A DNA stretch of 64,000 bases from Zunongwangia sp. H14 (GCF_041679265.1 NZ_JBGFSM010000008.1:124877-188876), one strand, 5' to 3'. Shown: positions 41,899 through 54,218, numbered from the stretch's first letter. Program-made: numbers and translations. Notes: generated by a model from the letters alone, not told the origin.

Positions 41899-42651
41899 TT
41901 ACAACTGTTCCCGGAGTTTTTTAAATTCCTGCTCGAGGTAATCCAGTTTATTTGCCAAAGCAGATGCATTGTCCGGCAGCCTTTGGAGAAAAGTATATTT
42001 TATGAGCCATAATTCTTTTACTTCTGCCAAAGGTATCACAGTATCTTTAATATTATTATTGGTGGCCTTCAGGGTTATTTTGTCTCCAAACAAATAAAAC
42101 TTACGCAGGTACAAACCTTCCTTTACAAGCGTAAGGATAAGGCTGCCATTTTCTGTTTTTAAAAAATTCTCGGCTTGAACCCTTTCACCAATAACAACAT
42201 CTTTAGGCCTTAAGCCACGTTCATTCTCTACGTTGTCTTCATTAGAAATCACAAAACCCCGGAACGTACCATTAGGATCTACCGGGAGGCAAAGGCAGGG
42301 AAGGTCTTCTATAAAGTGCGGCTTATCGTAATACCGAATATAATCCTGTTCACTGGCTGGTACAATGCAGGGAACCTTGGGAAAATCATCTTTTTCAAAA
42401 GTTCCCTGCAGAGGCAGGTCCTCTTTAAATTTTAAAAGTTTGTTCACCGTAAGTTCTTTGGTGAGCAGATCGTCTATAGTAATGCTAAAATAATTAGCTA
42501 TTTTTATAATAGTTTCAATACGCGGCTCACTTCTCTCTTCTTCATAAGCCCCTAAAGTCCCGCGTTTTAACTCGAACATCTCTGCAAAAGCCTGCTGGCT
42601 CAGCTTCTTGACGTTTCTGATCTTCCGGATATTCTTTCCAAAGTAAGACAT
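41899..42651 (-). CDS. XRE-family HTH transcriptional regulator with C-terminal S24 (LexA/CI)-like domain
   Basis: HTH_3 (IRKIRNVKKLSQQAFAEMFELKRGTLGAYE). The C-terminal beta-rich region has S24-like organisation (FVISNEDNV, KDVVIGERV, GSLILTLVKEGLYLRKF). The catalytic Ser/Lys assignment is uncertain. Confidence 0.6.
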   Translation of the reverse strand: MSYFGKNIRKIRNVKKLSQQAFAEMFELKRGTLGAYEEERSEPRIETIIKIANYFSITIDDLLTKELTVNKLLKFKEDLPLQGTFEKDDFPKVPCIVPASEQDYIRYYDKPHFIEDLPCLCLPVDPNGTFRGFVISNEDNVENERGLRPKDVVIGERVQAENFLKTENGSLILTLVKEGLYLRKFYLFGDKITLKATNNNIKDTVIPLAEVKELWLIKYTFLQRLPDNASALANKLDYLEQEFKKLREQL

Positions 42652-42706
42652 ATTTTTGCTAAAATTATTTGCAATAAATAAAAATTGTTTTATCTTTATC
42701 TAACAA

Positions 42707-42800
42707 TATTAGCTAATAGTGTAGATAATTGCTAATCTTTTTGGTTTTATTTTATTCAGAGAGAATGATATCCTGAAGTACTAAGATAATTAGCGTAATT
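42707..42800. promoter_or_regulatory. divergent promoter/operator region with a perfect 12-bp palindrome and related boxes
   Basis: TATTAGCTAATA (42707-42718) is its own reverse complement. There are related TTGCTAATC (42729-42737) and TTAGCGTAATT (42789-42799) boxes. The region lies between the divergent XRE/S24 regulator and the pspA cluster. Confidence 0.4.
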
Positions 42801-42883
42801 TTTTTAACCTTAAAAAAGATAAATCATGGGAGCGATAATAATTGCGGTCATTTTGTTAATAATACCTTAAAACCTTCAGATTT

Positions 42884-43324
42884 TTGTATTATTACGCCTT
42901 AAACCATCAGCAATCAAAAAACCAATCGATGAAAAACCATTTTCAGATTACAAAAAACTTTTTGCTGGAACTTAATTTTAATATCACCTTCGAAAATGAA
43001 GAAGAAGGAATTATAATGGTTCAAAAGGAAAGTTTTGGAATTAAGAACCTAATTCTTGGAGTAGCGCCGCCTATATTAATTATGGAGCAATATATCTTCA
43101 GGATTAACAATCAGTCAGAAAAAATTTTCAGAAGCCTGCTTCAAAAGAACAGGGACATAATTCATGGAGCTTTTGTTCTGGACGATTCGGGAGAAAAAGT
43201 GATTTTCAGGGATACACTTCAAATACAAAACCTGGACATAAACGAGTTGGAAGGTTCTTTAAATTCCCTCAGCTTATTGATGAGTGAATATTCAGACCGG
43301 ATTATAGAATTTTCAAAATACTAA
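42884..43324 (+). CDS. YbjN-like small protein (type III secretion chaperone-like fold); the start may be the internal ATG at 42929
   Basis: 146 aa. Its hydrophobic periodicity and motif blocks (FENEEEGIIMVQKE, GAFVLDDSGEKVIFRDTLQIQNLDINEL) resemble the YbjN/DUF2596 family. Assignment by eye only. Confidence 0.4.
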   Translation: MYYYALNHQQSKNQSMKNHFQITKNFLLELNFNITFENEEEGIIMVQKESFGIKNLILGVAPPILIMEQYIFRINNQSEKIFRSLLQKNRDIIHGAFVLDDSGEKVIFRDTLQIQNLDINELEGSLNSLSLLMSEYSDRIIEFSKY

Positions 43325-43334
43325 ACCTAATGTT

Positions 43335-44051
43335 ATGAACATTTTTAGACGATTATTTAAAATAGGGGAAGCCGAAGCAAATTCAGCCATAGATAAAATG
43401 GAAGATCCCATTAAACTAACCGAGCAGGGAATAAGGGATTTAAAGCAGGACCTTGATAAAAATATGGAAGCCCTGGCACAGGTAAAGGCCCTGGCTATTC
43501 GTGCCCGCAACGACCAGGAAGAATACCTGGAGAAAAAAGAAGATTATCACAATAAAGCCATTCTTATCCTCAAAAAAGGAGAGCGTGGTGAAATGGATAA
43601 AACCGAGGCTGATCGCCTGGCCAGGGAAGCGCTTATCAAGAAAGAGGAATCTCAGAAACATGTGGAAAGGGCAGAGGAGGAAGCGCGTAAATTCAATGAA
43701 AATGTAAGCCAGTTGGAACGCAATATTCAAACGATAAAAGCCAGCATCAGCAATTGGGAAAATGAGCTTAAGACCTTAAAGGCAAGGGTAAAAGTTAGCA
43801 ATGCCACCAAAATCCTCAACAAGCAAATGGCTGAAATTGACAGTAGCAGTACCGTGTCTATGTTGGAGAGGATGAAAGAAAAAGTTGCCCAGGAAGAAGC
43901 CCTGGCCGAAGCTTACGGAGATATTGCCGGGGCCACAAAAACCATAGATGACGAGCTGGAGAAAGCCGCGAATTCTACAGAGACCAAGGCTGAAGATGAT
44001 TTAAGCAAACTCAAAGACCAGCTGGGAATTAACAAAGATAAAAATTCCTGA
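43335..44051 (+). CDS. pspA: PspA/IM30 family protein (phage-shock protein A / Vipp1; ESCRT-III superfamily)
   Basis: MNIFRRLFKIGEAEANSAIDKMEDPIKLTEQGIRDLKQDL is the canonical PspA N-terminus. The rest is an all-helical coiled coil. 238 aa. Confidence 0.85.
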   Translation: MNIFRRLFKIGEAEANSAIDKMEDPIKLTEQGIRDLKQDLDKNMEALAQVKALAIRARNDQEEYLEKKEDYHNKAILILKKGERGEMDKTEADRLAREALIKKEESQKHVERAEEEARKFNENVSQLERNIQTIKASISNWENELKTLKARVKVSNATKILNKQMAEIDSSSTVSMLERMKEKVAQEEALAEAYGDIAGATKTIDDELEKAANSTETKAEDDLSKLKDQLGINKDKNS

Positions 44052-44053
44052 AA

Positions 44054-44752
44054 GTGGACAGTTTAACGCACATATTGTTTTCCCAGGTTAATCTCACTTT
44101 AAGCATCCTGCTCATTTTACTCCTGGTCTACTGGTTATTAACCATGGTTAGCGGGATAGATTTTGATTATGATGTAGATATTGATGTAGATGTGGATGCA
44201 GATGTTGGGATGGAAGGCGGGAATATGGAATTCCAGGAGGTTTCCAATGCCGAGTTAAACCGGGAAGATGTTGTGGGAAAGCGTATCCAGCCTTTAAAAT
44301 GGTGGCAGGTCTTTCTTATTTATTTCAATTTCGTGGGGCTGCCGTTTATGTTCACCTTTACCTGTTTTGTTTTTATCTGGTGGTTTAGTACCGTGTTAAT
44401 AACAGCGCTAACCGTTACCTACGACAATGTGCTGGGATTTGCCATCTTAATAATTGCATTTTTTGCCTCTCTTTTTATAAACAAGATCTTTACCAGTCCC
44501 TTTAAAGGCTTTTTTAAAAACCTGAATAAAGATGGGGATAAAGCAGTGGATTATATTGGCAGGCAGGGCGTGCTTTTATCCAGCATATCCGGTGACAGGA
44601 TGGGAAATGCTGAAATTAGTGTAAACGGGGATTCCATGTCTGTTTACGTAAAATCCCTTCACGGCGAGGCTTTGAATTATCATGATAAAATATTGATAAT
44701 AAAGCAATCTGCCGATAAAAATTACTTCTTAGTACAATCTTATAACGACTAA
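44054..44752 (+). CDS. NfeD/YqiJ-like membrane protein with C-terminal OB-fold
   Basis: N-terminal TM, an acidic DFDYDVDIDVDVDADV linker, further TM helices and a C-terminal beta-rich segment (GRQGVLLSSISGDRMGNAEISVNGDSMSVYVKS). It lies 15 nt upstream of the flotillin gene, as in yqiJ-yqiK. Confidence 0.55.
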   Translation: MDSLTHILFSQVNLTLSILLILLLVYWLLTMVSGIDFDYDVDIDVDVDADVGMEGGNMEFQEVSNAELNREDVVGKRIQPLKWWQVFLIYFNFVGLPFMFTFTCFVFIWWFSTVLITALTVTYDNVLGFAILIIAFFASLFINKIFTSPFKGFFKNLNKDGDKAVDYIGRQGVLLSSISGDRMGNAEISVNGDSMSVYVKSLHGEALNYHDKILIIKQSADKNYFLVQSYND

Positions 44753-44767
44753 TCAATCTATCTTAAA

Positions 44768-46846
44768 ATGAATCAAATTTTACCAATCATCGGAATTGGA
44801 TTAGGGGGAATATTGTTCCTAATCATAGTGTATTTCGCGATTATCGCGATGTTTTATAAGAAAGTGCCCCAGGGCCGTGCCATTGTGCGTACAGGTTTTG
44901 GCGGGACCAAAGTAGCCACAGATAAAGGCCTTTACGTGGTGCCTGTTTTTCACCGGGTGGAAGTCATGGATATTTCTGTAAAGAAAATCCAGATTGAGCG
45001 CCAGGCACATGAAGGCCTTATTTGCCGGGACAATATGCGGGCAGATATAAAAGTGGCTTTTTTTGTGAGGGTCAACAACGATATTTCCTTTATAAAGCGT
45101 GTTGCCCAAACCATTGGGGTGGACCGTGCTTCCAGAATTGAAACTTTGGAGGACCTTTTTGAAGCCAAATTTTCAGAAGCTCTTAAAACCGTTGGAAAGA
45201 AATTCGACTTTATTGAGCTTTATGAAGCACGCCGGGAATTCCGGGATGAAATTGTGAATATTATTGGGACAGATCTTAACGGCTATACCCTGGAAGATTG
45301 TGCTATAGACTTTCTTGAGCAAACGCCAATCACCCATCTTAAACCCGATAATATTTTAGATGCTGAAGGAATTAAGAAAATTACCGAGCTTACCGCTGTT
45401 CAGAATATGAAGGCGAATCTTATTAAAAGGGATGAAGAAAAAACCATTCGCAAGCAGGATGTGGAAGCCCGGGAAGCTATTCTGGAGCTTGATAAACAAT
45501 TAGCTGAAAAAGAAGAGCAGCAAAAACGCGAAGTGGCCAATATTAAAGCCAGGGAAGCAGCAGAAATAAGCAAGGTGGCTGAAGAAGAGCGACTTAAATC
45601 TGAAACCGCCAGGATTGCCACGGAAGAAAAAGTTAAGGTGGCTGAAGAAAATATGAACCGGCAGATTATTGTGGCCGCCAAGAATAAGGAACGCACAGAT
45701 GCTGTGGAAAGCGAAAGAGTTGAAAAAGACCGATTACTGGAAGCTACCGAGAGAGAACGTATTGTGACCTTAGCTCAAATTGAAAAAGAAAAAGTGGTTG
45801 AGGTTGAGAAAAAGAATATCCAGGATGTGATTCGGGACCGGGTAATGCTGGAAAAAGGAGTGGTGGAAGAGCGTGAGAATATGAAAGATATTGAAGCTTT
45901 TAAAACCGCCGACCGTGAGAAGAAAGTAAAAATAACGGTTGCTGAAGCCAATGCCCAGGAAGACCTGATTAAAATAATAAAAGCTGCCGAGGCCAAAAAA
46001 GAAGCGGCTAAACAAAGAGCCGAAGAAATTAATATTGAAGCCCTGGCACAGAAAGAGGCCAGCGAAAAAGAAGCCAAAGCCAGAAAGACCATTGCTGAGG
46101 CCAAAGCCAAAGAAGAAGCCACCATTGGATTATCTGAAGCTGAAGTGATGCATGCCAAGGCAGATGCCAGCGAAAGGCAGGGAATAATGGAAGCTCTTAT
46201 TATCGAGAAAAAAGCCAAAGCCGAAGCTGCCGGAATGGAAGCCAAAGCTGAAGCCAGCCTTAAGGAAGGAAAAGCAGCTGCCGAGGTCATTAAGGAAAAA
46301 GCCCTTGCCGATGCTGCTGGAATTGAGGAAAAAGCGGCCGCAATGAAGAAACTGGACGGAGTTGGAAAAGAGCATGAAGAATTTAAATTGAAGTTAGATA
46401 AAGAACTTCAGGTAGATTTGGCCCATATCAATATTCAGAAAGATATAGCAGATGCCCAGGCGCACGTGATAAGCGATGCCCTTAAAGCCGCCAAAATAGA
46501 TATTGTTGGTGGGGAAACTATGTTCTTCGATCAGATTATCGGGCAGATTACCAGGGGTAAAGGGATAGACAGGCTGGTGCAAAACAGCAGCAATGTTCAG
46601 GATTTAAAGGATTCTATATTGGGAAGTGAAGATATTAAGGGAAACCTGCTTACAAAAGTCCGCGAGTTTTCCCATAAATACGGGATCTCTTCAGAAGATA
46701 TCAAGAACTTTACCATCGCCAGTCTTTTGATGGAGCTCAAACAAAAATCTAATGATCCTAATGAGCAAACCATGCTGGGCAACCTTTTCAACCTGGCGAA
46801 AGGGCTGGGGCTTTCAGATAAAAAGGTAGCTGCTTTAAAAGCCTAA
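44768..46846 (+). CDS. flotillin (SPFH/band-7 domain, YqiK/FloT-like) with long EA-rich coiled coil
   Basis: N-terminal TM plus SPFH domain (AIVRTGFGGTKVATDKGLYVVPVFHRVEVMDIS), then ~350 aa of Glu/Ala/Lys-rich heptads. 692 aa. Confidence 0.85.
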   Translation: MNQILPIIGIGLGGILFLIIVYFAIIAMFYKKVPQGRAIVRTGFGGTKVATDKGLYVVPVFHRVEVMDISVKKIQIERQAHEGLICRDNMRADIKVAFFVRVNNDISFIKRVAQTIGVDRASRIETLEDLFEAKFSEALKTVGKKFDFIELYEARREFRDEIVNIIGTDLNGYTLEDCAIDFLEQTPITHLKPDNILDAEGIKKITELTAVQNMKANLIKRDEEKTIRKQDVEAREAILELDKQLAEKEEQQKREVANIKAREAAEISKVAEEERLKSETARIATEEKVKVAEENMNRQIIVAAKNKERTDAVESERVEKDRLLEATERERIVTLAQIEKEKVVEVEKKNIQDVIRDRVMLEKGVVEERENMKDIEAFKTADREKKVKITVAEANAQEDLIKIIKAAEAKKEAAKQRAEEINIEALAQKEASEKEAKARKTIAEAKAKEEATIGLSEAEVMHAKADASERQGIMEALIIEKKAKAEAAGMEAKAEASLKEGKAAAEVIKEKALADAAGIEEKAAAMKKLDGVGKEHEEFKLKLDKELQVDLAHINIQKDIADAQAHVISDALKAAKIDIVGGETMFFDQIIGQITRGKGIDRLVQNSSNVQDLKDSILGSEDIKGNLLTKVREFSHKYGISSEDIKNFTIASLLMELKQKSNDPNEQTMLGNLFNLAKGLGLSDKKVAALKA

Positions 46847-47031
46847 TAATGGTTCAGGAAAATGTTTTAAGATCATTTTTCCGCTGAAGTGTAGTGAAAT
46901 GACCCATAAAGGAAAGCCTGTCTGCATGGGCAGGCTTATCCTGTTATGGAAATCTATTTCAGCTTTACCTCCAATTTCGGGTCTGCAAGGCTGGAAACGG
47001 GAATGTTTATCCAAATTATGATTAGCAATAA

Positions 47032-50000
47032 ATGAAACAAGAAGATAACAAAACTGTAAAAAATGATGCCCTGGATGGCGGCACTTACGAAATTATCCGC
47101 AACCGGCTGGCCGTTCATAAATCAAATTTGCAGGAGCGTTTACAGCAGTTAAATGAAAGCCGCAAAACGGTCTTTGGTTCTCTGGAAACGCAGCTTATCG
47201 CCAGTAACCGCATTAGTACTGAAAATAATTGCGTGGCCAGGGATATTATTTCCCTTGGGAATACCTGCATTTTTGGCTATAATGTGCATTTTGGTTTGCG
47301 TACCGAGATCAAACTTTCTGATGTTTTCAGCGTATACCAATTTGCAGAAAACCGGTTTGTGCAGGTGGCGCATTCTATTCTTGAAGATGAAACCTTCAAA
47401 AGCGATTTTACCAATCTCTATAAATATTACCGCAATACCATTTTCTCGAAATTTGCCAGAATCGGCAATTACCTGCACATGGTTTTTCAGCTAAGTGACA
47501 GCGTTACTGATATCAAGACTTTTAAGTGGCTTATCGCTGATGACAAACTGGAATATATAGACAATCGCAGCGAGCATGAATTTAAATATCCGCAGCAGCA
47601 CCAGTTTAAGTGGCAGGAAGCAAACCGCGATATGCAGCGTTACGGGGAGCACCCGCATGTGGCTATTTTGGATAAGGTATTTGTGGAAACCATTGGTGGG
47701 GATCTCACCATCAAAATTGAAGACAATACCAATGATGGTAAAGGAATTTATTCTGAAGCCGTAAGCTATAAAGACCAGACGCTGGATGACGGCCAGATTC
47801 GCTTTGCCGATTTGGGAAACCTCATTATCCTGGAAATAAAACCATTCCAGGAGGAGCCAAGGTATTTTGTGTACAATCACAAGGTGCAGGAGGTACAGAA
47901 AATAGATTCTGTTAAGGAAGCGGTGGTATTGCTGCCCGATGAGCAGGGCATTATTTTTCCCAATGGGTATTATTTGCAAACCGGCGAATTTCATCTGTTT
48001 AGTACAGAGGTCCAGCAGCTTAAGTTCCAGGGAACTATTGCTTCTACAAACGGTGAGGATTTTCTGTATATTTTTTACTCTCCCGTGGAGGGCACTTACA
48101 AGCTCATGGATTACAATATGATAGCCCAGGAAATTAAAACTCCCATTGTTTGCGGCGGCTTTACGGTATTGCCAGATGGTGAACTTTGCTGTTTTAAAGC
48201 TGAAGCGGAGCAAACAAAGCACCATATGATCCAGATTTGGCAAACGCCTTACCTGGAAGGCGATTTTATGCCTTCGGAACACCAGGATTCCATGCTGTAT
48301 AAAATTGGCAATAAAGATATTGTGAAGGCCATGGCCGAGGCGCGGGAACTTATTACTTTGCTGAATAAAGAAGATAATTATGACGGCCTGTACACCGATA
48401 TTGCTAAAATTTCCAAAGACATTCTTGATGCTTATTACTGGCTTGGCGAAGCCGAAACTTCAAATTTAAAAGAACCGCTTAAAGAGATCAACCAGGCGGC
48501 AAATTCAGCTATAGATGAATTTCAGAAGGTCGTTCAGCTAAAGAAAAATGCAGCGGCAGAAACAAAGGCAATTCAGCATAAAGCAGACGATCTTTTCAGC
48601 AAAATTAAAAGCACTTCTTTTAAAAGTATAGATGAGTTTGTGGCATTGCTCTCGCAGTTAAGAAGCCTGCGCGGGGAGCTAATTGGCTTATATGAACTCC
48701 GTTATGTAGACGAAGAACTGATTAAAAACCTGGAAAATGAATTAGCGGAACATACATCTAAAATTTCCCGCAGGTGTGTGGAATTTTTGCTGGATGAGAA
48801 GGCTTTGCAGCCTTACCATGAAAAAGTTTCCGAAAAAGGGCAAAAACTGGAGCAGATCCAAAAAGTGGTTGAAGCAAAACAGCTGGAAGATGAGGTGAAC
48901 CAGATTGCGGCAGATTTGGAAATGCTTATCGATATTGTTACCAACCTGGAGATTGAAGACACTTCGCATTCTACAAAAATCATTGACAATATTTCGCTAA
49001 TTTTCGCGACCATTAACCAGCTGAAGGCGGCCTTAAAGAATAAAAGGAAGCGCCTGGGCGGCAAGGAAGCCAAAGCCGATTTTGCCGCGCAGCTCAAGCT
49101 AATAGACCAGAGCATTATTAATTACCTGGACCTCGCTAAAACTCCGGAGAAGTGCGATGAATTTCAGAATAAAATCAGTATTCAGCTGGAAGAGCTGGAA
49201 GGCAAATTTGCCGATTTTGAAGAGTTTATTGCTGAAATTATTGAAAAAAGGGAAGAGATTTATAACGCTTTTGAAAGCAAAAAAGCAGCGATCACTGAAA
49301 AGCGGAACAAAAAAGCGATGGCTTTGCAAAGCGCGGCCGATCGTATCCTGAAAAGCATCGGCAAAAAAGCGGAAAGCCTGAAATCTGTTGCTGAAATCAA
49401 CGGTTACTTCGCGGCCGATCTTATGGTAAATAAGCTGCGGGATATTGTGAACCAGCTAAACGAATTGGAAGATAGCGGCAATGCCGAAGAAATTGAAACT
49501 GCCCTTAAAACCAGCCGGGAAGATGCCATTAGAAAATTAAAAGATAAGCAGGACCTTTATGAAGACGGCGAGAATATTATAAAGCTGGGAAATCATAAAT
49601 TCGGCGTGAACCGGCAGGAACTGGATCTTAGCTTCGTGATGAAAAATGGCAGTTTGTGCTATCACCTTAGCGGAACAGATTTTTACCAGGAACTGGAAAA
49701 CGAAGTGCTGCTTAACAGCAGGAAATACTGGAACAGGGAATTTATTTCAGAAAATGAAGAGGTTTACCGTGCGGAATATCTCGCTTTTAGAATTTATCAA
49801 AAGCAAGAAATTATAAAGCTGGCAAAAATGGATAAGCAGGAATTACTTCATCTTGTCCGGGAGGAAAGCAGCAGCAATTATTCTGAAGGTTATATTAAAG
49901 GTGTGCATGATGAGGATGCCGCCGGGATATTGGAGGTTTTGGTACAAAAACGTTTGGAGTTGGGAATTTTGTCTTTTTCTTCCAGGGTGCGGGCGCATGG

Positions 50001-51897
50001 GCAATATTTCTGGAACTCTCTGGAAGAGAATGTAAAATCAGGTTATAACAATTCGATAAAAGCTTCAGGACAGGTACTTAAATATTTTCCAAATACCCGG
50101 GAATACGAGTTTTTAATAGAAGAACTTAAGAGCGGAATTACTGATTTTGCAGAAGCCACAGGCCTTTTTTCTTCGGAAGAAAGCCAGGAAACGGCGGAGT
50201 ATTTATTTGAAGAACTTCAGGGGGACAATAATTTTGCTGTTAGCAGCCTGGCTTCAGAATTAACTGAAGAATTCCGCGGTATGCTGAAAAAGGAAAAGGC
50301 ACGGGATCAATTTGATAACAGCCTGGAGAGCCTGGGTTCTTATGCGGCTAAAATAAGGTTGATAAAACAATGGCTGCAGGCGTATGTAAAAGCTACGGGA
50401 AAGGAGCAGCAGTTAAAATATATTGAGGAAGCAGTGTGTGGAATGATGTTTCCAAAGCAGGAGTATTACAAAATTGAAGCTTCTCCCAACGCCGTGATCA
50501 CAGGATTGAAAGGTGAGCATACGGGCATAGAAAATTCTGAATTGCAATTTGATTTTCATGAATTTACCAATCGCTTACAAAAATTCATCAATCATGAAGT
50601 CCCCGCTTTTAATGCTTTTAGAAAAGCACGGCATGAGGTTACTGAAAAGCTGAAGGAGCAGTTAAAACTGGAAGAATTTAAGCCGCGGGTGCTTACTTCT
50701 TTTGTGCGCAATAAGCTGATAGACCAGGTATATTTCCCTTTGTTTGGGGAAAACCTGGCCAAGCAGCTGGGAAGTGTGGGGGACAACCGGCGTACGGACA
50801 GAATGGGAATGCTCCTGCTTATTTCGCCGCCGGGATATGGAAAAACCACTTTAATGGAGTATGTGGCTAACCGCCTGGGTTTGGTATTTATGAAAATAAA
50901 CGGTCCGGCGATTGGGCACGAGGTCACCTCGGTAGATCCTGAAGCCGCTAAAAATTCCGCCGCCAGGGAAGAATTGAAAAAACTGAACCTTGCTTTTGAA
51001 ATGGGGAATAACGTAATGCTGTACCTGGACGATATCCAGCATTGCAATCCTGAATTTCTTCAGAAGTTTATTTCTTTATCTGACGGCACTCGAAAAATTG
51101 AAGGGATCTATAACGGGAAACCGAAGACCTACGATTTGCGCGGGAAAAAGTTTTGCGTGGTCATGGCCGGGAATCCTTATACGGAGAGCGGGGAGAAATT
51201 CCGTATTCCCGATATGCTGTCCAACCGGGCCGATATTTATAATCTTGGGGACATTATTGGAGATACCGCAAATTTGTTCAAATTAAGCCTGATGGAAAAC
51301 TCGCTTACTTCAAATCCTGTTTTGCATCAACTTAGTTCAGGAAATTTTGAAGATGTATATACTTTGATTCAACAGGTAGAGAATAAATCGGAAACCGGGG
51401 AATTAAAGAGCAATCATACCCACCAGGAAATCCAGGATTACAAGGCGGTTATACAAAAAGTGTTGAAGATAAGGGACGCGGTTTTAAAAGTAAATGAGGC
51501 TTACATAAAGTCTGCGGGCATGGAAGATGAATACAGGACAGAGCCGGCTTTTAAACTACAGGGCTCTTACCGGGATATGAATAAGCTGGTGAGCAAGGTT
51601 GTTCCCATTATGAATGATAAAGAACTTGACAGCCTCCTTCTTTCTCATTATGAAAATGAATCCCAAACATTAACCGCTGCTGCTGAAGCTAATTTATTAA
51701 AGTATAAAGAATTAACTCAGAAGCTTTCTTCTGAAGAGAAAGAGCGTTGGGAGCAGATCAAAGCAACTTTTGTAAAGAATAACAAATTAAAAGGGCTGGG
51801 CGGGAAAAATGAAATTGCACAGGTAATCTCACAAATGATGGCTTTTACAGAAAATCTTGAAGGAATTAAAATTGTGCTTCAAAACGGATTGAAATAG
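47032..51897 (+). CDS. 1621-aa multidomain protein with C-terminal AAA_5 (MoxR/dynein/McrB-like) ATPase domain; function unknown
   Basis: One uninterrupted ORF. Walker A LISPPGYGKTTL (~aa 1268), Walker B VMLYLDDIQ (~aa 1333), sensor VVMAGNP and Arg motif MLSNRAD. The upstream ~800 aa are K/E-rich helical or coiled-coil. The N-terminal ~420 aa are globular and aromatic-rich. No TM segments. Confidence 0.8.
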   Translation: MKQEDNKTVKNDALDGGTYEIIRNRLAVHKSNLQERLQQLNESRKTVFGSLETQLIASNRISTENNCVARDIISLGNTCIFGYNVHFGLRTEIKLSDVFSVYQFAENRFVQVAHSILEDETFKSDFTNLYKYYRNTIFSKFARIGNYLHMVFQLSDSVTDIKTFKWLIADDKLEYIDNRSEHEFKYPQQHQFKWQEANRDMQRYGEHPHVAILDKVFVETIGGDLTIKIEDNTNDGKGIYSEAVSYKDQTLDDGQIRFADLGNLIILEIKPFQEEPRYFVYNHKVQEVQKIDSVKEAVVLLPDEQGIIFPNGYYLQTGEFHLFSTEVQQLKFQGTIASTNGEDFLYIFYSPVEGTYKLMDYNMIAQEIKTPIVCGGFTVLPDGELCCFKAEAEQTKHHMIQIWQTPYLEGDFMPSEHQDSMLYKIGNKDIVKAMAEARELITLLNKEDNYDGLYTDIAKISKDILDAYYWLGEAETSNLKEPLKEINQAANSAIDEFQKVVQLKKNAAAETKAIQHKADDLFSKIKSTSFKSIDEFVALLSQLRSLRGELIGLYELRYVDEELIKNLENELAEHTSKISRRCVEFLLDEKALQPYHEKVSEKGQKLEQIQKVVEAKQLEDEVNQIAADLEMLIDIVTNLEIEDTSHSTKIIDNISLIFATINQLKAALKNKRKRLGGKEAKADFAAQLKLIDQSIINYLDLAKTPEKCDEFQNKISIQLEELEGKFADFEEFIAEIIEKREEIYNAFESKKAAITEKRNKKAMALQSAADRILKSIGKKAESLKSVAEINGYFAADLMVNKLRDIVNQLNELEDSGNAEEIETALKTSREDAIRKLKDKQDLYEDGENIIKLGNHKFGVNRQELDLSFVMKNGSLCYHLSGTDFYQELENEVLLNSRKYWNREFISENEEVYRAEYLAFRIYQKQEIIKLAKMDKQELLHLVREESSSNYSEGYIKGVHDEDAAGILEVLVQKRLELGILSFSSRVRAHGQYFWNSLEENVKSGYNNSIKASGQVLKYFPNTREYEFLIEELKSGITDFAEATGLFSSEESQETAEYLFEELQGDNNFAVSSLASELTEEFRGMLKKEKARDQFDNSLESLGSYAAKIRLIKQWLQAYVKATGKEQQLKYIEEAVCGMMFPKQEYYKIEASPNAVITGLKGEHTGIENSELQFDFHEFTNRLQKFINHEVPAFNAFRKARHEVTEKLKEQLKLEEFKPRVLTSFVRNKLIDQVYFPLFGENLAKQLGSVGDNRRTDRMGMLLLISPPGYGKTTLMEYVANRLGLVFMKINGPAIGHEVTSVDPEAAKNSAAREELKKLNLAFEMGNNVMLYLDDIQHCNPEFLQKFISLSDGTRKIEGIYNGKPKTYDLRGKKFCVVMAGNPYTESGEKFRIPDMLSNRADIYNLGDIIGDTANLFKLSLMENSLTSNPVLHQLSSGNFEDVYTLIQQVENKSETGELKSNHTHQEIQDYKAVIQKVLKIRDAVLKVNEAYIKSAGMEDEYRTEPAFKLQGSYRDMNKLVSKVVPIMNDKELDSLLLSHYENESQTLTAAAEANLLKYKELTQKLSSEEKERWEQIKATFVKNNKLKGLGGKNEIAQVISQMMAFTENLEGIKIVLQNGLK

Positions 51898-52033: not shown

Positions 52034-54166
52034 ATGAAAGAAAAGAAAGATAAGCCTTCAAAAAAAATAGAAGACTTAAACGCGAATACCTCTAATCCTA
52101 AAGGGAAAACAATGACTACCAATCAGGGATTAAAGGTAAACGACACCAACAATTCCCTTAAAGCCGGAGCGCGTGGAGCCACTCTTTTGGAAGATTTTAT
52201 CCTAAGAGAAAAAATAACCCATTTTGACCATGAGCGTATCCCGGAAAGAATTGTTCATGCCCGCGGAAGTGGTGCCCATGGTTATTTTGAGTTATACGAA
52301 AGCCAGGAAGAGATTACCAAAGCAGGAATTTTTACCGATACTTCAAGAAAAACACCTGTATTTGTTAGATTTTCTACCGTGGCGGGATCAAAAGGATCAC
52401 CGGATCTTGCAAGGGATGTTCGTGGATTTGCCACAAAATTCTATACAGATGAAGGCGTTTTTGACCTGGTAGGGAATAACATGCCCATCTTTTTTATTCA
52501 GGATGCCATGAAGTTTCCGGATCTTATCCATTCTGTAAAACCAGAACCGGACAGGGAGATACCGCAGGCAGCTTCAGCCCACGATACTTTTTATGATTTT
52601 GTCTCACATACCACAGAAACCCTTCATAACCAGATCTGGCTGATGAGCGACCGCGCGATCCCTAGAAGTTTCAGGATGATGGAAGGCTTTGGGATACATA
52701 CTTTCAGGTTAGTGAATGAAGAAGGGAAATCCCATTTCGTGAAATTTCACTGGAAACCTTTGCTGGGAGTAAAATCGGTTACCTGGGACGAAGCAGTTAA
52801 AATTCATGGTGCCGATGCAGATTTCCACCGCAGGGACCTTTGGGATGCCATAGAAGCCGGCCAGTATCCGGAATGGGAATTAGGATTCCAGGTGGTGCCG
52901 CAGGAAGACGAGCATAAATTCGATTTTGACCTGCTGGACCCTACAAAACTTATTCCGGAAGAAATGGTGCCGGTAAAACGTATAGGTAAAATGACGCTTA
53001 ACCGTAATCCAGATAATTTCTTTGCCGAAACAGAACAGGTGGCATTTCACCCCGGGCACGTGGTTCCTGGAATAGATTTCACCAATGATCCTTTACTGCA
53101 GGGAAGGTTATTTTCTTATACCGATACGCAATTATCTCGATTGGGAAGCCCAAATTTCCATGAGATTCCAATCAATCGCCCGGTAAATGAAGTACATAAC
53201 AATCAGCGGGACGCGCATATGAGAATGACGGTGAATAAAGGCAAAACAGCTTATTTTCCAAATTCCATCGGGGGAGGATGCCCACATCTTGCCAAAATAG
53301 CCGAAGGCGGTTTTAGCAGTTATGAAGAGCGTATAGACGCCAAGAAGATAAGGGAGCGCAGTGAAAGCTTTAACGATCATTTTTCGCAACCTGCTTTATT
53401 TTATAGAAGTTTGACTGCACATGAGCAGGAACATGTGGTACAGGCGTATTCCTTTGAATTGGGGAAATGTACTTATGATCATATCAAGCAGCGAATGCTG
53501 TATATCCTTAGCCAGATAGACGAAGATCTTGCCGCCAAGGTTTCTGTAAATCTCGGAATGGAGATTCCTGAGGAAGTTGACGGGCCGGTAAATCAAGCGA
53601 TTGGAGCCGATGCCGATGTTGAAAAACATCAGCCGGGACCTAAAAAAATGTACCTTGATAAATCCAAGGCATTAAGCCAGGAATTTCTTCCTTCAGAAGG
53701 TATTGCGACCAGGAAAATTGCCGTACTGGCCGGGGATGGCTTCAGCGAAAGCGATTACAATAAAATGAAAAATTCTTTAGAAGATGAAGGAGCCATGGTT
53801 CAGATTGTAGGAGTACACGGAGGTACAATTAAATGCAATAAAGGCGATAAACACCAGGTAGCGCATGCGTTAATGACTACAGAAAGCGTTGTTTTTGATG
53901 CGCTGTATATTCCCGGCGGAAAAGAAAGCATTGATGCCTTAATGAAACAGGCAAAGGCTAAAAAGTTTATTAATGAAGCTTTGAAACATTGTAAAGCCAT
54001 TGCTTTAGACAATGAAGCTGAAGAACTCTTTGATGCCACCTACGGTAAAGATTTTAAAGAGGACGAAGCGGTTTGTATAAATGAGAAACCGGAAAAATTT
54101 ATTAAGGCAATTAGCAAGCATCGTAACTGGAAAAGGGAAAAAGCGGCTATGGAGATCCCCGCCTAA
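52034..54166 (+). CDS. katE: catalase HPII (large-subunit clade, with C-terminal DJ-1/PfpI-like domain)
   Basis: Catalase core ([20 protein letters not shown], proximal RLFSYTDTQ). At 710 aa it is the large-subunit type. Confidence 0.9.
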   Translation: [710 protein letters not shown]

Positions 54167-54184: not shown

Positions 54185-54218
54185 AAGGAGCCATCACATT
54201 AATGTGATGGCTTTTTTA
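54185..54218 (+). terminator. rho-independent terminator after katE
   Basis: AGCCATCACATTAATGTGATGGCTTTTTT is a perfect palindromic stem with a T-run. Confidence 0.75.

Follow-up and report, generated by a model that had tools for sequence, protein, structure and literature searches.

Organisation of the locus

We analysed a stretch of 64,000 nucleotides (nt) from Zunongwangia sp. H14 (Flavobacteriaceae; GCF_041679265.1 NZ_JBGFSM010000008.1:124877-188876), called the window below, for a cluster of six genes at positions 41899-51897. The cluster is real and membrane-associated, and consists of a divergent XRE regulator gene and five co-directional genes, which encode a CesT/Tir-like chaperone, PspA, a YqiJ-like membrane protein, a flotillin and a giant ATPase. 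An initial annotation had described a co-oriented membrane-associated module with a divergent regulator, and the comparison of loci presented below supported its conservation.

The regulator gene (41899-42651, minus strand) encodes an XRE/Cro-type helix-turn-helix (HTH) protein (HTH_3 E 5e-11; domain E-values for the cluster proteins are from a Pfam profile search) with an S24-like C-terminal domain that is without the catalytic dyad, followed by a short C-terminal helix. On the plus strand, a predicted promoter- or operator-like region (42653-42737) was recognised by conserved blocks and TTGCTAA enrichment, and a hydrophobic leader open reading frame (ORF) of 14 amino acids (aa), MGAIIIAVILLIIP (42826-42870), by its recurrence in relatives and coding-type substitutions. 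The five co-directional genes, also on the plus strand, encode the CesT/Tir-like chaperone (42929-43324, with the longest ORF running from TTG 42884), PspA/IM30 of the bacterial ESCRT-III superfamily (43335-44051), a YqiJ-like protein of 232 aa (44054-44752), a flotillin-type SPFH protein (44768-46846) and a soluble ATPase of 1621 aa (47032-51897). A stable RNA hairpin (46904-46949, plus strand; -30 kcal/mol, z -4.8) lies in the spacer between the last two. The ORF calls found all genes where the initial annotation had placed them, with gaps between the co-directional genes of 10 nt (43324 to 43335), 2 nt (44051 to 44054), 15 nt (44752 to 44768) and 185 nt (46846 to 47032). The catalase gene katE (52034-54166) starts 136 nt past the ATPase gene. 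The flanking genes encode an ABC transporter, a GDSL lipase, ThuA, Usp, the catalase and a histidine kinase, and no mobile elements were found among the flanks.

Conservation of the gene order

Related loci were found with a 25-sequence ATPase alignment. From at least 586 matches, 80 genome loci were annotated with profiles of the window proteins, and neighbours were counted over those loci with enough upstream DNA. Flotillin was encoded upstream of the ATPase in 61/64 loci, a YqiJ-like protein in 58/63 and PspA in only 31/62. The ATPase thus has a conserved neighbourhood, and the initial annotation is not refuted by its own criterion. The YqiJ-flotillin-ATPase triad occurs in Bacteroidota, Planctomycetota, Verrucomicrobiota, Desulfobacterota and Clostridia, and two ATPase members that are ~26% identical to the query still keep it. 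We concluded that the triad is an ancient, nearly invariant unit of the ATPase family.

The regulator and the CesT-PspA pair were found together in 30 genome loci, all of them from Bacteroidota. Counted from the CesT gene in metagenomes, PspA follows in 63/64 loci, flotillin is present in 36/42 and the ATPase in 29/35. The divergent regulator gene lies upstream of the CesT gene in 30/30 of the genome loci and in 57/57 of those from metagenomes. Six metagenome loci carry the regulator and CesT-PspA alone, and triad-only loci occur in several phyla. The regulator with CesT-PspA has been added to the triad only in Bacteroidota and also exists alone; because each module is separable, the cluster is best described as a fusion of two modules. 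The fusion is kept with a median PspA-YqiJ gap of ~60 nt (2 nt here) across Flavobacteriia, Sphingobacteriia, Cytophagia and Bacteroidia. In one of the ~26% identical members (L084) the PspA gene is convergent and abuts the ATPase gene, and in another locus (L020) PspA lies downstream on the opposite strand. These two arrangements indicate that the link to PspA arose more than once. Clustering of 2004 flanking ORFs gave no further conserved neighbour common to >8/80 loci.

One or more extra genes stand between flotillin and ATPase in L004, L019, L030, L074 and others, with gaps of 0.9-2.7 kb, and also in L017, L045 and L047. A family of small proteins (~140-185 aa) is encoded at this place in 5 loci; it has no equivalent in the window.

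Ravi, Aravind et al. (mSystems 2024, PMC11237479; bioRxiv 2020) describe, in the passages retrieved by term search, a class of operons with a CesT/Tir-PspA dyad. For Dokdonia donghaensis (ANH61663.1) their Table S3 lists CesT/Tir-PspA-YqiJ/YuaF-Band-7/flotillin-AAA+ with a regulator written as '<-cHTH+Protease'. The system type was therefore already known, and the fused operon, which the initial annotation had not seen characterised, has been reported with its regulator by comparative genomics. According to the same passages, abbreviated flotillin-YqiJ-AAA+ operons are more widespread, in other phyla, which our locus survey reproduced; an ESCRT-like, ATP-dependent role in membrane remodelling is suggested there. 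The retrieved passages make no mention of the lost regulator dyad, of an operator motif, of a leader ORF or of a hairpin within the operon, nor do they place the AAA+ domain near MoxR/midasin or remark on the DD in its Walker B. New here are the two separable modules, the dyad-less regulator, the conserved operator-like palindrome, the exclusion of katE, the leader ORF and the spacer hairpin.

The catalase gene had been considered as part of the unit. Homologs of KatE, Usp and ThuA were found in 0/80 related loci, and the cluster of the congener Z. profunda has other genes on both sides, without katE. From these two results we concluded that katE is an unrelated neighbour and stands outside the module, as do the other flanking genes. 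The initial annotation had seen no terminator until after katE. In agreement with this, the 136-nt spacer after the ATPase gene contains no strong hairpin (z -1.35), and a strong terminator follows katE at 54189-54217, a perfect hairpin AGCCATCACAT TA ATGTGATGGCT with T-runs on both sides. This hairpin is likely a bidirectional terminator shared with the convergent downstream ORF.

The CesT-like chaperone, PspA, the YqiJ-like protein and flotillin

The ORF 42884-43324 had been called YbjN-like. It matched CesT_Tir_1 (PF22550) over its full length with E 1.9e-56, CesT with E 0.0065 and YbjN only with E 0.046. By these scores the protein belongs to the same chaperone-like superfamily as YbjN, but not to the YbjN family. 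ATG 42929 is the most likely start rather than TTG 42884, because CesT_Tir_1 aligns only from residue 16 of the longest ORF onwards and the ortholog in Z. profunda is annotated with 131 aa. The distance of 232 nt between the chaperone and regulator genes given in the initial annotation is correct from TTG 42884; with the start at ATG 42929 the intergenic region measures 277 nt.

The identification of PspA/IM30 was confirmed by a full-length PspA_IM30 match (E 1.1e-42; 146.6 bits vs a curated cut-off of 33.9). Its N-terminal amphipathic helix is conserved in the conservation profile. No transmembrane (TM) segments were found in the CesT-like protein, PspA or the ATPase.

For the YqiJ-like protein an AlphaFold model (pLDDT 67) showed three TM helices and a C-terminal OB-like beta-barrel. 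The best PDB matches of the model by Foldseek were the NfeD protein YuaF (2k14, E 3.9e-5), YbbJ in the QmcA-YbbJ complex (8z5g, 3.5e-4) and P. horikoshii 1510-C. None of the 29 members of the YqiJ-like family matched a Pfam profile for NfeD or YqiJ (DUF1449), even at E <= 10, and PDB sequence searches with the protein and its profile gave nothing useful. Some homologs are named 'DUF1449/OB-fold-containing' in the source databases. The initial description as an NfeD/YqiJ-like OB-fold membrane protein is right by fold, although no Pfam profile of these families was reached. With NCBIfam, this protein, the flotillin and the ATPase gave no match to a specific family. Residues 35-60, in the loop between the first two TM helices, are very acidic and of low model confidence (DFDYDVDIDVDVDADVGMEGG), with an alternating D-x-D pattern that is kept in relatives; this loop might bind cations.

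The flotillin was identified by Band_7 (E 1.1e-11; 45.5 bits vs a cut-off of 23.6). It has an N-terminal TM segment (residues 1-34), an E/A/K-rich coiled-coil stretch of roughly 400 aa (~residues 200-600) and a conserved C-terminal region, in agreement with the SPFH protein with a long coiled coil that had been proposed. It is strongly conserved across 64 homologs from several phyla.

The giant ATPase

The ATPase contains DUF3686 (residues 33-469, E 5e-180), DUF7902 (590-673), a long helical region, a C-terminal AAA+ domain (~1240-1420; Pfam AAA/AAA_5) and a helical C-terminal extension. A soluble protein with a C-terminal AAA_5 module, as first described, fits these assignments. The AlphaFold model of residues 1180-1621 (pLDDT 86.8) has a beta-hairpin before sensor 1, and in the fold comparison its AAA+ domain was nearest to CbbQ, NorQ, midasin and dynein. 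Walker A (G1268-T1272), N1381 and R1399 are invariant in 25 aligned members that are 30-80% identical. No match to an MIT domain was found with Pfam, the family alignment contains no conserved aromatic residue in pore loop 1, and no VWA/MIDAS domain was seen in the ATPase or among its conserved neighbours. A PDB sequence search had hinted at the classical AAA clade. The match covered only ~40-70 residues around Walker A, and this hint was overturned by the fold comparison. On the model, the protein is a MoxR/midasin-like AAA+ module on a very long helical arm and not a relative of Vps4.

The family is large, with 1397 clusters at 50% identity and E <= 1e-3, 418 of them with E <= 1e-30, and the gene is present in at least 586 species genomes; the search of representative sequences used residues 1-1200. 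The window ATPase is 100% identical to a Zunongwangia sp. H14 protein, and across the genera of Flavobacteriaceae the identity is 66-80%. The ATPases of Echinicola, which we take to belong to the order Cytophagales, are 76-77% identical to the window protein and so closer than those of most Flavobacteriaceae genera (66-75%); this hints at lateral transfer of the module.

The hairpin at 46904-46949 upstream of the ATPase gene is unique in the window according to a repeat check. A strong hairpin was present in 26/38 related flotillin-ATPase spacers, across phyla; in L012, L013 and L015 it is followed by a T-run, and in some loci it has the form of a canonical terminator. It is a candidate internal attenuator or mRNA-stabilising element that may set the ratio of scaffold proteins to ATPase, and its recurrence suggests an attenuated expression of the ATPase relative to the scaffold proteins.

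The divergent regulator

The regulator had been described as an XRE-HTH protein with a LexA/CI-like S24 fold. Its HTH and divergent orientation were verified, whereas the S24 assignment was reached only with matches under the cut-off (Peptidase_S24 E 0.0086; LexA TIGR00498 E 0.0075). Comparison with LexA/cI/UmuD by hhalign gave a weak S24-like match (probability 70%, E 4e-5, 71 columns), and a MAFFT alignment with LexA, lambda cI and UmuD put the C-terminal domain into the same register. In the column of LexA Ser119 the window protein has Asp, and the 31 relatives have Glu in 17 cases, Asp in 2 and Ser in 1. In the column of Lys156 it has Arg, with Arg in 20 and Gly in 7 of these relatives. 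An Ala-Gly (or Cys-Gly) cleavage site was not found in the linker, where the aligned columns are variable among the 31 relatives, and the C-terminal domain contains no Ser or Lys that is invariant in the aligned relatives. A regulator without the Ser/Lys dyad does not support LexA-type self-cleavage, and the self-cleaving repressor of the initial annotation finds no support here. Judged by its sequence, the domain would be at best an S24-like pseudo-protease.

The intergenic region and the leader ORF

The predicted promoter region contains a half-site TTGCTAA (42656-42662), a -33-like TTTG (42668-42671), a -7-like TATCTTTA (42691-42698) at a spacing of 19 nt from the TTTG, the perfect 12-bp palindrome TATTAGCTAATA (42707-42718), which the initial annotation had correctly reported, and a third TTGCTAA (42729-42735). 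These blocks are kept across 15 aligned Flavobacteriaceae intergenic regions, in which the sites flank a conserved TTTG-N19-TAnnTTT(G/A) element. The published promoter consensus of Bacteroidetes is TTTG-N19-21-TAnnTTTG, which differs from that of sigma-70 promoters, and a sigma-70 promoter scan was for this reason set aside. The conserved element appears to fit the consensus, and the palindrome would then fall at about +2 to +14.

Palindromes of 12 bp are by themselves not improbable: the window contains 27, and 32/100 shuffles gave a match with <=1 mismatch. The identical TATTAGCTAATA was found at the same position in 7/31 related loci from about five genera. TTGCTAA occurs in 37 copies in 22/31 intergenic regions, at 4.0 per kb vs 0.27 per kb across the loci (~15-fold). 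From this conservation we infer that the palindrome is an operator-like site at the predicted promoter.

Equivalents of the leader ORF (12-23 aa, hydrophobic), drawn from the leaders of L001-L015 and L087-L166, were found in 10/31 genome loci vs 1.2 +/- 1.0 in shuffles, and in 38/61 distinct metagenome leaders vs 3.6 +/- 2.0 in shuffles (maximum 10). Between relatives the differences are distributed over codon positions 1/2/3 as 91/34/130, and synonymous codon changes amount to 40% in frame vs 14% and 9% in the other frames. Replacements are mostly hydrophobic for hydrophobic. The leader ORF is probably translated, as this pattern of substitutions suggests.

Further downstream, most Flavobacteriaceae loci keep a block TTTTTGTA(A/T)TATTA (42882-42895, plus strand) ~35 nt before the start of the CesT gene, and where the leader ORF has 23 codons its stop codon falls within this block. 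In the window TAATAATAC (42857-42865), at the 3' end of the leader ORF, can pair with GTATTATTA (42886-42894). An attenuator formed by this pairing was considered for the window; single-sequence folds of 42 leaders gave no consistent structure, and it is therefore not claimed.

Interpretation

The cluster is an instance of the published CesT/Tir-PspA-YqiJ/YuaF-flotillin-giant-AAA+ operon of Bacteroidota. For its mechanism we favour, with about an even chance (probability approx. 0.5), two fused modules that work on the inner membrane from the cytoplasmic side. There, flotillin together with the NfeD protein would build an SPFH scaffold or cage. For the soluble ATPase a ring formed by the MoxR/midasin-like AAA+ domains is probable, and its helical arm together with DUF3686 could assemble, remodel or dismantle the scaffold or clients held in it. 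The XRE regulator would bind the TTAGC/GCTAA sites that overlap the predicted promoter and repress the operon, with the S24-like domain, without self-cleavage, serving in dimerisation or signal sensing. Under membrane stress the operon would be derepressed. The CesT-like dimer would then keep PspA assembly-competent and bring it to the flotillin platform, a task that in B. subtilis falls to the SPFH protein YdjI, and PspA would polymerise so that damaged membrane is sealed or reshaped. The hairpin before the ATPase gene could hold the ATPase below the level of the scaffold proteins.

A bolder form of this proposal, which we regard as tentative and rather doubtful, makes the triad an ATP-driven machine, in which a MoxR/midasin-like motor mechanically assembles or strips a flotillin cage and which in Bacteroidota has been wired to PspA and its chaperone. 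Translation of the conserved hydrophobic leader peptide might in addition sense the state of the membrane. If true, bacterial membrane repair by flotillin and ESCRT-III proteins would for the first time have a dedicated nucleotide-driven partner.

Several points weigh against the proposed operon function. Walker B reads D1333-D1334 in all 25 aligned members, with Asp in place of the usual catalytic Glu, which suggests that hydrolysis could be slow or that the domain uses ATP as a nucleotide switch. The spacer hairpin, the 185-nt gap and the separate occurrence of the modules mean that the ATPase may be expressed and act independently. It is gene order that suggests a contact of the ATPase with flotillin or PspA, and membrane stress as the inducing signal is a supposition. 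Promoter, transcription start and repression by the regulator are all predicted. A PDB sequence search with the N-terminal 1200 residues of the ATPase matched no solved structure, and an N-terminal beta-propeller is an assignment made in the retrieved passages of PMC11237479 and not in this analysis. Our literature search found no experimental work on this operon type, and PMC10948618 states that experimental data are not available for the related 6-gene operon that it discusses.

The ATPase could alternatively be a functional analogue of Vps4 that disassembles PspA polymers, with stress induction by a self-cleaving LexA-like repressor; this was the logic of the initial annotation, and it now seems unlikely to us. 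PspA and the ATPase do share one co-oriented cluster in 30 Bacteroidota loci, and PspA has been linked to the ATPase again, in other arrangements, in L084 and L020. ATP-dependent remodelling is what the retrieved passages of PMC11237479 propose for PspA-AAA+ associations, and the role is unfilled: bacteria seem to have no Vps4-like ATPase according to a 2025 review, which leaves open how PspA polymers are controlled. However, half of the ATPase loci have no PspA nearby while nearly all have flotillin and YqiJ. The constant partners of the ATPase are these two and not PspA, and on this ground the Vps4 analogy is unsupported. The model of the window ATPase has a beta-hairpin before sensor 1, a feature that is not known from ATPases of the classical clade such as Vps4. 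The missing MIT match and aromatic pore-loop residue, and the regulator without Ser/Lys dyad and Ala-Gly site, also speak against it. The ATPase thus appears to work with the flotillin scaffold and not, in the manner of Vps4, on PspA.

We give an equally low chance to two independent systems that merely stand side by side, a stress module of regulator, CesT and PspA and a YqiJ-flotillin-ATPase module of separate function. Each of them does occur alone, as in the six metagenome loci without the triad and the triad-only loci of several phyla, and a strong hairpin and a gap of 185 nt precede the ATPase gene. Against a mere juxtaposition stand the short PspA-YqiJ gap, kept across four classes, the independent recruitment of PspA beside the triad in L084 and L020, and an experimental precedent for SPFH-PspA coupling in B. 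subtilis, reported in the passages of PMC8581546 that were consulted.

Anti-phage defence or abortive infection by membrane proteins and a large ATPase is very improbable. Weak matches connect the regulator to HTH proteins of defence systems, and IetA was matched very weakly (E 0.0014), but in the PADLOC scan the similarity of the six proteins did not go beyond generic HTH or P-loop matches, and this candidate was dropped. The identity of 66-80% between ATPases of many Flavobacteriaceae genera points to a core gene inherited vertically more than to a defence island with patchy distribution, and the flanking genes are ordinary, without mobile elements. Least credible is a DNA-repair ATPase, a name that rests only on the Pfam description of DUF3686 ('ATPase involved in DNA repair'; NCBI label 'DNA repair ATPase') and on P-loop-level similarity to RuvB, since the weak RuvB_N/RuvB matches span only ~45 residues around the P-loop at Walker A, no DNA-binding or nuclease domain was found in the protein, the conserved neighbours are membrane proteins in 61/64 loci, and a literature search for DUF3686 gave no paper.

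Compared with the initial annotation, the operon hypothesis is redirected: flotillin and YqiJ come ahead of PspA as partners of the ATPase, LexA-type cleavage is not expected and katE is irrelevant. We know of no account of how bacterial flotillin scaffolds are assembled and dismantled. The operon family bears on the control of bacterial ESCRT-III and flotillin assemblies, and a widespread family that encodes flotillin, an NfeD partner and a giant ATPase together, often with PspA, is an obvious experimental entry point.

Comparison with known systems

The self-cleaving repressors of the LexA/CI (S24) type have a Ser-Lys dyad and an Ala-Gly site, which the window regulator does not have. The partners of PspA in the classical Psp system (PspF-ABC), namely the sigma-54 activator PspF and PspB/PspC, were not found in the cluster or its flanks.

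As in ESCRT-III/Vps4 systems (CdvB/CdvC, Snf7/Vps4), an ESCRT-III-fold polymer and an AAA+ protein are encoded in one cluster, and a recycling role of the ATPase is conceivable; the MIT domain and the aromatic pore loop 1 and classical fold of the Vps4 clade are missing from the window ATPase. With the MoxR-type proteins (CbbQ, NorQ, RavA) and the AAA_5 domains of midasin and dynein it shares the AAA_5-type fold. It differs from them in its single C-terminal AAA+ domain in a chain of 1621 aa, in the DD of Walker B and in that no VWA/MIDAS partner was seen. In HflK/C-FtsH, too, an SPFH assembly and an AAA+ machine are genetically linked. The AAA+ partner there, FtsH, is a membrane protease that the assembly encloses on the periplasmic side, whereas the window ATPase is soluble and carries no protease domain, and for the window flotillin a cytoplasmic SPFH domain is predicted.

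In E. coli yqiJK, B. subtilis yuaF-floT and QmcA-YbbJ (8z5g) a 3-TM NfeD-type protein with an OB-like barrel is also encoded directly upstream of the SPFH gene. These pairs are without giant ATPase and PspA, and the window protein reaches no Pfam model for NfeD or YqiJ. E. coli yjfIJ and the P. aeruginosa bac operon (PMC10948618) also have a gene of the CesT/Tir superfamily immediately before the PspA homolog. Their chaperone is DUF2170 and not PF22550, the partner genes are polyamine-related, and flotillin, NfeD and the giant ATPase are not present. Mutants in bac show phenotypes in biofilm and rhamnolipids, and osmotic shock raises the level of BacB (PMC10948618).

PspA has been described with band-7/FloT, NfeD and HTH regulators in another phylum (Popp et al. 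2022). The B. subtilis operon pspA-ydjGHI (samGHI) combines PspA, an SPFH protein and membrane partners in a membrane-stress system, where YdjI, the SPFH protein, connects PspA with the membrane, as far as the consulted passages report (PMC8581546; Popp et al.). According to these passages it is without CesT-like chaperone, NfeD/YqiJ protein and giant ATPase, and its regulation differs; YdjI is cytosolic and recruited by the membrane proteins YdjG/H (SamG/H), whereas the window flotillin has its own TM segment. Closest of all is the Dokdonia donghaensis operon, for which the retrieved parts of PMC11237479 give no architectural difference: it belongs to the same bacterial family and shares with the window cluster the gene order, the domain architectures and the divergent regulator.

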